DNA of 19,380 nt from Escherichia coli (lineage in GTDB: Bacteria; Pseudomonadota; Gammaproteobacteria; Enterobacterales; Enterobacteriaceae), in NCBI RefSeq assembly GCF_003334355.1, contig NZ_QOWP01000048.1. One strand, given 5' to 3'. Below the pieces are notes generated by a model that ran no database searches, was not told where the DNA came from, and was given only the letters and a program-made list of their open reading frames with translations. Position 1 is the stretch's first letter; the number at the start of each line of letters is the position of its first letter. Positions 4,167-5,188 of this stretch are shown here, piece after piece. The position numbers and the translations under genes are program-made.

Positions 4167-4934
4167 GTGACATATTCGATTGGCATTGATTCCGGCTCAA
4201 CCGCCACCAAAGGGATCTTACTGGCTGACGGCGTGATTACGCGCCGTTTCCTCGTTCCAACACCCTTTCGCCCGGCAACAGCAATTACTGAAGCCTGGGA
4301 AACTCTGCGCGAAGGGTTAGAGACAACGCCGTTTCTGACGCTCACCGGCTACGGACGGCAACTGGTGGATTTTGCCGATAAACAAGTGACGGAAATCTCC
4401 TGTCACGGGCTGGGCGCACGGTTTCTTGAGCCAGCAACGCGCGCGGTAATCGACATCGGTGGTCAGGACAGCAAAGTGATTCAGCTTGATGATGACGGTA
4501 ACCTGTGCGATTTCCTGATGAATGACAAATGCGCGGCGGGCACCGGGCGTTTCCTGGAGGTGATCTCGCGCACGCTTGGCACCAGCGTCGAGCAACTCGA
4601 CAGCATTACCGAAAATGTCATACCGCACGCCATCACGAGTATGTGCACAGTGTTTGCTGAATCAGAAGTGATCAGCCTGCGCTCTGCGGGCGTAGCGCCA
4701 GAAGCGATTCTCGCCGGAGTGATTAACGCGATGGCGCGGCGGAGCGCCAATTTCATTGCTCGTCTCTCCTGTGAAGCGCCGATTCTGTTTACTGGTGGCG
4801 TTAGCCACTGTCAAAGGTTTACCCACATGCTGGAAAGCCATCTGGGAATGCCGGTACAAACTCACCCTGATGCGCAATTCGCTGGTGCAATTGGCGCGGC
4901 GGTGATCGGTCAGCGGCAGAGAAAACGCGCATGA
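4167..4934 (+). CDS. yjiL: HgdC/BadF/BadG/BcrA/BcrD-family ATPase (putative ATP-dependent reductase/activator) YjiL (255 aa)
   Basis: AAGGAG at 4156-4161 with GTG at 4167 (5-nt spacer); the GTG at 4161 overlaps the SD. N-terminal IGIDSGSTATKG is the phosphate-1 motif of acetate/sugar-kinase-fold ATPases. Starts 9 nt after the yjiM stop. Confidence 0.85.
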   Translation: MTYSIGIDSGSTATKGILLADGVITRRFLVPTPFRPATAITEAWETLREGLETTPFLTLTGYGRQLVDFADKQVTEISCHGLGARFLEPATRAVIDIGGQDSKVIQLDDDGNLCDFLMNDKCAAGTGRFLEVISRTLGTSVEQLDSITENVIPHAITSMCTVFAESEVISLRSAGVAPEAILAGVINAMARRSANFIARLSCEAPILFTGGVSHCQRFTHMLESHLGMPVQTHPDAQFAGAIGAAVIGQRQRKRA

Positions 4935-5188
4935 AAGAGTATCTGTTTTTATTTCACTCCACGGTCGGCGTCATACAAACCCGCAAGGCGTTGCAGGCAG
5001 CGGGCATGACTTTTCGCGTCAGCGATATTCCCCGTGATTTACGCGGCGGCTGCGGGTTATGCATTTGGCTGACCTGTCCGCCTGGCGAGGAAATTCAATG
5101 GGTGATCCCTGGGCATACGGAATCAGTTTATTGTCAGCAGGATGGTGGCTGGCGCTGCATTGCACATTACGGGATTTCTCCGCGTTAA
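4931..5188 (+). CDS. Small DUF3343-like (putative Se/S-carrier-like) protein, 85 aa, translationally coupled to yjiL
   Basis: ATG at 4931 overlaps the yjiL stop (ATGA). Codon usage is typical E. coli (ctg, ggc, cgc rich). [43 protein letters not shown] resembles the DUF3343 pattern as I recall it; also contains a CPPG motif. Confidence 0.6.

Follow-up and report, generated by a model that had tools for sequence, protein, structure and literature searches.

The yjiM–yjiL–ytiA locus

The stretch of DNA analyzed here, referred to as the window, comprises 19,380 nucleotides (nt) of the Escherichia coli contig NZ_QOWP01000048.1 (NCBI RefSeq assembly GCF_003334355.1) and carries three consecutive genes, yjiM, yjiL and ytiA (Table 1). 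The identities of yjiM and yjiL follow the RefSeq annotation of identical or near-identical loci, and yjiL was located in the loci of other genomes by tblastn. The third gene, ytiA, is found in the program-made list of open reading frames (ORFs) as 85 codons and a stop codon. The first-pass annotation of this DNA had described an 85-codon ORF that overlaps the yjiL stop codon in an ATGA and ends 64 nt before yjiK, and these coordinates are all confirmed from the sequence: the ATG of ytiA (4931-4933) shares bases with the TGA of yjiL (4932-4934), and 64 nt lie between the ytiA stop codon and the GTG start codon of yjiK (5253). The composition of ytiA, with a GC content of 0.53 and a third-position GC content (GC3) of 0.56, is similar to that of yjiM, yjiL and yjiN, and the core peptides quoted at that time as well as a C-P-P-G tetrapeptide (residues 49-52) are present in the translation.

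In the first 9 kb of the window, 47 ORFs of at least 60 residues overlap, so the length of an ORF is by itself little evidence, and the case for the gene is made by homology and conservation. The sole Pfam-A match of YtiA is PF11823 (Se_S_carrier, formerly DUF3343), with an E value of 6.1e-14 and a score of 51.7, in which residues 3-59 are aligned with positions 1-57 of the 69 positions of the model; the resemblance to DUF3343 that had been proposed initially is borne out by the hidden Markov model (HMM). No NCBIfam family is assigned to YtiA, for which that database gives only a chance match (E 0.17), and a sequence search of the Protein Data Bank (PDB) finds no homolog with a solved structure (best E 0.054), so that no function can be transferred from a structure. 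In a megablast search with positions 4600-5500, the region is found in 5,386 of 5,426 complete E. coli genomes. In 20 records taken evenly along the ranking of this search, the ORF is always annotated, either as ytiA or unnamed, as ‘DUF3343 domain-containing protein’ or ‘putative Se/S carrier protein’, and is placed between yjiL and yjiK, so that the earlier suspicion of a small ORF missed in annotation does not hold. The product in the K-12 derivative BW25113 is WP_000657675.1. It is practically certain that 4931..5188 is the genuine gene ytiA, a member of the DUF3343 family. The gene, its family assignment and the putative role of the family are already known from public annotation and the literature, and a literature search on E. 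coli ytiA, PF11823 and yjiM/yjiL did not find a functional study; most of the matches to ‘ytiA’ concern the L31 paralog of Bacillus subtilis.

Table 1. Features of the yjiM–yjiL–ytiA region, in window coordinates
Feature	Position	Strand	Description
yjiM	3006..4157	+	First cistron; coding sequence of 383 amino acids; double-cubane-cluster ([8Fe-9S]) anaerobic reductase, Pfam HGD-D
yjiL	4167..4934	+	Second cistron; ATP-dependent activator/reductase (BcrAD_BadFG ‘archerase’)
AGAGAAAA	4918..4925	+	Weak Shine-Dalgarno-like purine-rich stretch within the yjiL 3' end; 6-13 nt upstream of the ytiA start codon
ATGA	4931..4934	+	ytiA start over yjiL stop; putative translational coupling signal
ytiA	4931..5188	+	Third cistron; 85 amino acids and stop; DUF3343/Se_S_carrier (PF11823)
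Conserved core D32-I-P-R-x-L-R-G-G-C41-G-L-C44	5024..5062	+	Loop between strands 2 and 3 and start of strand 3 (predicted)
Cys41 codon	5051..5053	+	Only invariant cysteine; proposed sulfur/selenium attachment site
C49-P-P-G tetrapeptide	5075..5086	+	Lineage-specific, not a conserved motif
ytiA–yjiK spacer	5189..5252	+	64 nt; no terminator-like or promoter-like site detected

Conservation of the gene cluster and of the overlap

A scan with YjiM, using one genome per GTDB species, returned 80 loci, in which DUF3343 ORFs were detected with an HMM built from the alignment of distant family members. A DUF3343 ORF directly follows yjiL in each of the 59 gamma-proteobacterial yjiM loci, which include Escherichia, Citrobacter, Klebsiella, Raoultella, Kluyvera, Kosakonia, Atlantibacter, Trabulsiella, Phytobacter, Cedecea, Superficieibacter, Intestinirhabdus, Hafnia, Morganella and Aeromonas. 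When the loci collected earlier are added, the stop codon of yjiL and the start codon of ytiA overlap in 67 of 67 loci, by 4 nt in 55 loci, by 1 nt in nine, by 8 nt in two and by 11 nt in one, the start being taken as the in-frame ATG, GTG or TTG nearest to the yjiL stop, with a few heuristic assignments. Conservation of the reading frame and of the overlap, which the first-pass annotation had named as a check, is seen throughout these loci. The triad of HGD-D, BcrAD_BadFG and Se_S_carrier genes is intact in Klebsiella pneumoniae, Citrobacter freundii, Kosakonia and Atlantibacter, with both flanks being different, and it is also found for a distant relative (37% identity), in which an 18-nt gap is seen instead of the overlap. 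With this arrangement, ytiA is the last gene of a three-gene module conserved among gamma-proteobacteria, a predicted operon in which its translation would be coupled to that of yjiL.

We infer that the AGAGAAAA stretch acts as a Shine-Dalgarno element for ytiA; the orthologs have GGAGG, GAGGA or GGGAA at the matching distance upstream of the start codon. The purine-rich 3' end of yjiL (4911..4931), which doubles as this Shine-Dalgarno-like element, specifies the basic tail QRQRKRA at the C-terminus of YjiL. The tail sequence differs among genera while the purine richness is retained, which suggests a dual constraint on the yjiL/ytiA overlap region.

A promoter/terminator scan of the window finds no terminator-like or promoter-like site between yjiL, ytiA and yjiK. 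In Klebsiella, Kosakonia, Atlantibacter and C. freundii, ytiA is not followed by yjiK (Atlantibacter also being without yjiN upstream), which places yjiK outside the module. In the window, yjiK (5253..6113, + strand) encodes an SdiA-regulated domain protein and has a GC content of 0.43 and a GC3 of 0.45, compared with a GC content of 0.51-0.56 for its neighbors; it was probably acquired later than the yjiML–ytiA module, to which it does not belong. Upstream of yjiM, only two-mismatch matches to an FNR-type site are found (17 versus 10.6 +/- 3.5 expected), and at this chance frequency no claim is made on anaerobic regulation.

The 21 non-proteobacterial YjiM loci are from Enterococcus species, Vagococcus, Asaccharospora, Acetoanaerobium, Lachnospiraceae and a metagenome-assembled Bacillota genome. 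YjiM is 86-90% identical across the Enterobacteriaceae, and the Bacillota homologs are 60-67% identical to the E. coli protein, an unusual degree of conservation that suggests either a very strong constraint on YjiM or its horizontal transfer between the two groups. In 20 of these 21 yjiML loci, no DUF3343 ORF is found within 5 kb, even at E<=10. In Bacillota, yjiM and yjiL mostly form a unit of just two genes, and a terminator-like hairpin follows several of the yjiL genes, as read from the sequence; the neighbors of the Enterococcus yjiML genes give no functional hint. The existence of yjiML pairs without an adjacent DUF3343 gene points to YtiA being an accessory and not a core subunit.

The exception among the 21 loci is Acetoanaerobium pronyense (NZ_JAGGLI010000017.1, locus L072, 8196..9488, - strand), where a fusion protein of 430 residues combines an N-terminal DUF3343 domain (residues 3-71, Pfam E 2.4e-17) with the radical-SAM [FeFe]-hydrogenase maturase HydE (TIGR03956, 303 bits versus a cutoff of 254.6). 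The gene of this fusion protein lies between hydF and hydG, in a hyd cluster that is convergent with yjiM–yjiL and begins about 70 bp beyond it. Here, the DUF3343 domain has been recruited to another Fe/S-cofactor maturation enzyme.

Conserved residues and sequence variation of YtiA

Among 1.84 billion representative proteins, a profile search gives 118 matches at E<=1e-3. When 40 distant members (20-38% identity) are aligned, only Phe8, Pro34 and Cys41 are invariant, and Leu21 and Gly42 are nearly so, from which a P-R-x-L-x3-C-G core is obtained. The longer core segment listed in Table 1 is invariant or nearly so among enterobacterial orthologs. The four positions of interest behave very differently in the 61 orthologs for which complete sequences could be recovered from the gamma-proteobacterial loci (76-102 residues, compared with 85 residues for the window protein). 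Cys41 is a cysteine in 61/61 orthologs and in 40/40 distant members; Cys44 is present in 50/61 orthologs, Cys49 in 48/61 and Pro50 in 17/61, and the exact CPPG sequence is found in 5/61. Orthologs without Cys49 occur in K. pneumoniae, Trabulsiella, Morganella and some Kosakonia, and CPPG is absent from the distant DUF3343 members. As judged from these alignments, the candidate residue of interest in YtiA is Cys41, not Cys49 of the CPPG tetrapeptide. Cys41 corresponds to the ‘highly conserved Cys’ of DUF3343 that was described by Lin et al. 2015 (PMC5322559).

The ratio of nonsynonymous to synonymous substitution rates (dN/dS) of ytiA, estimated with the Nei-Gojobori method for 25 within-genus pairs, ranges from 0.06 to 0.55, with a median of about 0.19, and the corresponding values are about 0.08 for yjiL and about 0.04 for yjiM. 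These estimates indicate that ytiA is under purifying selection, with a constraint four to five times weaker than that on YjiM. The sequence changes of YtiA are concentrated in the C-terminal third. Between the window and K-12, eight synonymous and five nonsynonymous codon changes are seen in ytiA, and 9/15 base changes are at third positions.

The window is a mosaic with respect to sequenced strains, as is seen at 1..1570 and 11500..13462. Positions 4600-5500 are 100% identical to strain MS1737, whereas the surrounding 10 kb are only about 97.7% identical; at the upstream end (1..1570), the window has mdtM, like K-12, where MS1737 has an Rpn-family gene, and positions 12124-13462, which contain an uncharacterized ORF of 192 residues (12646..13224, + strand), are without a counterpart in the MS1737 locus. 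The similarity to the window stops near position 5141, within the 3' end of ytiA, in about 650 E. coli genomes. One of these was inspected (locus L097, 3332..5908); ytiA is retained there and encodes a protein of 88 residues with a different C-terminal tail, and a gene for a pentapeptide-repeat protein of 665 residues is inserted between ytiA and a yjiK-like gene. The break near 5141 has the appearance of a junction left by recombination or insertion in the variable ytiA tail.

Predicted structure of YtiA

The AlphaFold2 model of YtiA, calculated with 23 orthologs, has a mean predicted local distance difference test score (pLDDT) of 87.4 and a predicted template modeling score (pTM) of 0.78. 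The order of the secondary structure elements is β1 (2-8), α1 (11-23), β2 (28-32), loop (33-42), β3 (43-49), α2 (53-57), β4 (63-70) and β5 (73-79), which predicts a ferredoxin-like core with an added hairpin. The D-I-P-R-x-L-R-G-G-C segment forms the loop between strands 2 and 3, where the pLDDT dips, and Cys41 is predicted to be placed where this flexible loop meets strand 3.

Two structural assignments were considered and rejected. The [4Fe-4S] motif of ferredoxins is CxxCxxCxxxCP, whereas YtiA has only CxxCxxxxCP, in which Cys44 and Cys49 are not conserved; the resemblance of the segment C41-x2-C44-x4-C49-P to the ferredoxin motif of FwdG, with an E value of 0.054, is not significant. Membership in the PII/GlnB family, for which a PII HMM match and the trimer-forming T-loop/B-loop signature would be expected, is likewise not indicated, as there is no Pfam match and only a weak fold similarity (Foldseek E>=0.018, 10-21% identity).

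Genomic context of the DUF3343 family

Seven of the distant DUF3343 genes could be placed on contigs, of which one was uninformative. The other six (6/7) adjoin or overlap genes for TusA/YedF, Aminotran_5 (cysteine desulfurase/selenocysteine lyase), YedE-type Sulf_transp or YqeC proteins. In one locus, a TusA+DsrE (YedF-like) gene lies 1 nt upstream; two others have overlapping genes in the orders TusA, Aminotran_5, DUF3343 and TusA, DUF3343, Aminotran_5; a fourth has an overlapping TusA neighbor, a fifth a YqeC neighbor and a sixth a YedE-type Sulf_transp gene together with a divergent Aminotran_5 gene and a LysR gene. No HGD-D or activase gene is found near these six DUF3343 genes. The position of these distant genes beside sulfur/selenium mobilization genes supports a role of Cys41 as a persulfide or perselenide carrier.

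The uninformative gene (locus L008, 1046..1297, on the 1.4-kb metagenome contig ERR4229011_113571) has a product closely similar to the DUF3343 protein of ‘Enterobacteriaceae bacterium B14’ and follows a pseudouridine-synthase gene and an ORF of 48 residues instead of yjiL; near relatives of the YtiA clade are thus also found outside the yjiML module.

A link of this family to sulfur and selenium trafficking is described in the literature (PMC5322559; bioRxiv 10.1101/2022.04.13.486033). DUF3343 was proposed to be a selenium or sulfur chaperone by Lin et al. 2015, in whose STRING table for Slackia the DUF3343 genes are grouped with YedF, a selenocysteine-lyase-family gene, a ‘CoA-substrate-specific enzyme activase’ and an HgdB-like ‘2-hydroxyglutaryl-CoA dehydratase subunit’ (PMC5322559). 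Kayrouz et al. report duf3343 in the top five of the genes that most often overlap selD. For the double-cubane cluster proteins (DCCP), the Haft preprint finds 955/970 in SelD-containing genomes and speculates on selenium substrates, or on a 2(4Fe-4S)-Se cluster. YjiM itself is classified by Jeoung et al. as a ‘class II’ double-cubane protein that is paired with YjiL and has an unknown substrate (PMC7317905). Three independent lines, linking DUF3343 with selD, DCCP with SelD and DUF3343 with DCCP, converge on selenium or sulfur chemistry for YjiML, which makes this a worthwhile hypothesis.

Proposed role of YtiA

A sulfur or selenium relay for YjiLM, as had been suggested from the sequence, is a reasonable hypothesis. 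In the form preferred here, YtiA is a carrier of sulfur or selenium on Cys41 that serves YjiML, and a probability of roughly one half is given to this reading. A cysteine desulfurase/selenocysteine lyase, alone or with a TusA/YedF-type protein as intermediary, would load Cys41 with sulfane sulfur or selenium, giving a persulfide or perselenide. This species would be handed over or presented for reduction to the ATP-driven low-potential reductase YjiM, with its double-cubane [8Fe-9S] cluster, and its partner YjiL; alternatively, within the same carrier function, YtiA could donate sulfur or selenium to YjiML. In either case, YtiA would be a dedicated sulfur/selenium-handling accessory of YjiML, neither a core catalytic subunit nor a TusA homolog.

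A more specific proposal, which is put forward tentatively, is that a persulfide, perselenide or selenotrisulfide on Cys41 is reduced by YjiML with low-potential electrons energized by ATP, freeing HSe- (or HS-) for SelD-dependent selenium use, or, in a variant of this proposal, that YtiA supplies the cluster with a bridging selenium or sulfur atom. Reduction of YtiA-bound selenium or sulfur by YjiML would explain the co-occurrence of DCCP and SelD (955/970) as well as the overlaps of duf3343 with selD. If this is true, the enterobacterial double-cubane reductase would have YtiA as a third component, missing until now, by which its physiological chemistry is defined.

It is also conceivable, though unlikely, that YtiA is a cluster-assembly factor, an option also raised in the first-pass annotation, which would deliver the bridging ninth sulfide (or selenide) by which two [4Fe-4S] cubanes are joined in the [8Fe-9S] cluster of YjiM or would help to load the [4Fe-4S] cluster of YjiL. 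The tight operon link to a double-cubane protein, the ties of the DUF3343 family to desulfurases, the DUF3343–HydE fusion of Acetoanaerobium and the speculation of Haft on a 2(4Fe-4S)-Se cluster are all in agreement with such a function. However, the Bacillota YjiM proteins, being 60-67% identical, have no DUF3343 gene nearby in 20/21 loci, and YtiA evolves fast relative to YjiM. It also counts against assembly that the double-cubane protein of Carboxydothermus hydrogenoformans, as reportedly observed by Jeoung and Dobbek in 2018, assembled its cluster in heterologous expression.

Another function that could be read from the cysteines is that the CxxC sequence C41-G-L-C44 is a redox disulfide or a metal or Fe-S site, and that YtiA is an electron acceptor, an electron donor or a regulator of YjiML. 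Cys44 is indeed present in most orthologs (50/61), a CGxC sequence recurs in many distant members, and there is the weak (not significant) likeness to the CxxC...CP segments of ferredoxins such as FwdG. Nevertheless, Cys44 is replaced by alanine, serine or glycine in Aeromonas, Morganella, Hafnia and strain B14, in which the triad and the coupling are kept, and Cys41 is the only cysteine that is invariant family-wide. Moreover, in the secondary structure of the model, Cys41, Cys44 and Cys49 are strung along one strand, a geometry that would be unfit for chelating one center. A site of this kind is accordingly regarded as doubtful at best.

The loop position in the predicted fold could also be compatible with a PII/ACT-like regulator that senses a metabolite and modulates the ATPase activity of YjiL or the activity of YjiM, but with the weak fold similarity described above, this is judged to be improbable.

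There is little room for a TusA-like sulfur relay through Cys49-Pro-Pro-Gly, which follows from the ‘TusA-like C-P-P-G context’ of the first-pass annotation. The motif of the TusA family, which bears the persulfide cysteine, is C-P-x-P, and C-P-P-G does not fit it; a Cys-Pro dipeptide does exist in the E. coli protein. The exact CPPG sequence occurs in only 5/61 orthologs, with loss of Cys49 in 13/61. YtiA has no TusA match in Pfam even at E<=10. An hhalign comparison of the DUF3343 profile with a TusA-domain protein, taken from a DUF3343 neighborhood, gives a probability of 13.8%, with the aligned part being outside the TusA domain. No TusA structure is among the fold matches listed for the YtiA model, in which the two-layer α/β fold of TusA is not seen. 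Membership in the TusA family (PF01206) is therefore rejected by HMM and profile, by the C-P-x-P motif and by fold, and the TusA-type proteins are found as separate neighbors of DUF3343 genes. The suggested TusA-like context does not survive these comparisons, and the relay through Cys49 is regarded as very improbable indeed.

That 4931..5188 is a spurious or decaying ORF without function, as its shortness, the lack of an NCBIfam model and the variable C-terminus might suggest, can be dismissed in view of the Pfam match, the reading frame kept from Escherichia to Aeromonas and the dN/dS values well below 1.

Double-cubane [8Fe-9S] reductases such as YjiM have no known physiological substrate, and DUF3343 proteins have been tied to selenium/sulfur trafficking only by genome context. 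What is new here is the quantification of the strict, coupled linkage of DUF3343 with yjiML across the gamma-proteobacteria and its absence from Bacillota, the refutation of the CPPG/TusA reading with Cys41 singled out as the key residue, and a confident ferredoxin-like model predicted for YtiA. The coupled linkage and Cys41 together make both questions accessible, in concrete terms, in an organism that is genetically tractable. Should YtiA be a protein-bound sulfur/selenium substrate or donor for YjiML, two orphan systems would be joined and selenium mobilization in anaerobes would be clarified.

Comparison with known systems

YtiA shares with the DUF3343 family the HMM match, the size of 80-100 residues, the single domain and the invariant cysteine in the P-R-x-L-x3-C-G loop. 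Most of the distant members examined adjoin TusA/YedF, cysteine desulfurase/selenocysteine lyase, YedE or YqeC genes. The YtiA clade is different from these in being fixed behind yjiM–yjiL and in having extra, non-universal cysteines (Cys44, Cys49, Cys68 and Cys76).

The likeness to TusA, SirA and YedF is in the small size and in a single essential cysteine as the presumed carrier of persulfide sulfur. YtiA may act like a TusA-type protein and probably works beside one, but no sequence, profile or fold relationship is found between them. The cysteine of TusA is in a C-P-x-P motif at the N-terminus of a helix, whereas the invariant cysteine of YtiA is predicted to be at a loop/strand junction, in a C-G context.

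The β-α-β-β-α-β core predicted for YtiA is shared by small ferredoxin-like domains, such as PII/GlnK, CutA, the C-domain of UreE, ACT and DUF2179. In PII, the functional loop is between strands 2 and 3, at the same position as in the YtiA model.

The DCCP/DCCP-R system (Jeoung & Dobbek; PMC7317905, PMC9351452), of which YjiM and YjiL are the E. coli representatives, has been published as a two-component system in which a DUF3343 partner is not mentioned, and the Bacillota pairs are also without one. In E. coli, on the other hand, ytiA is predicted from the gene arrangement to be cotranscribed and translationally coupled with the genes of YjiM and YjiL.

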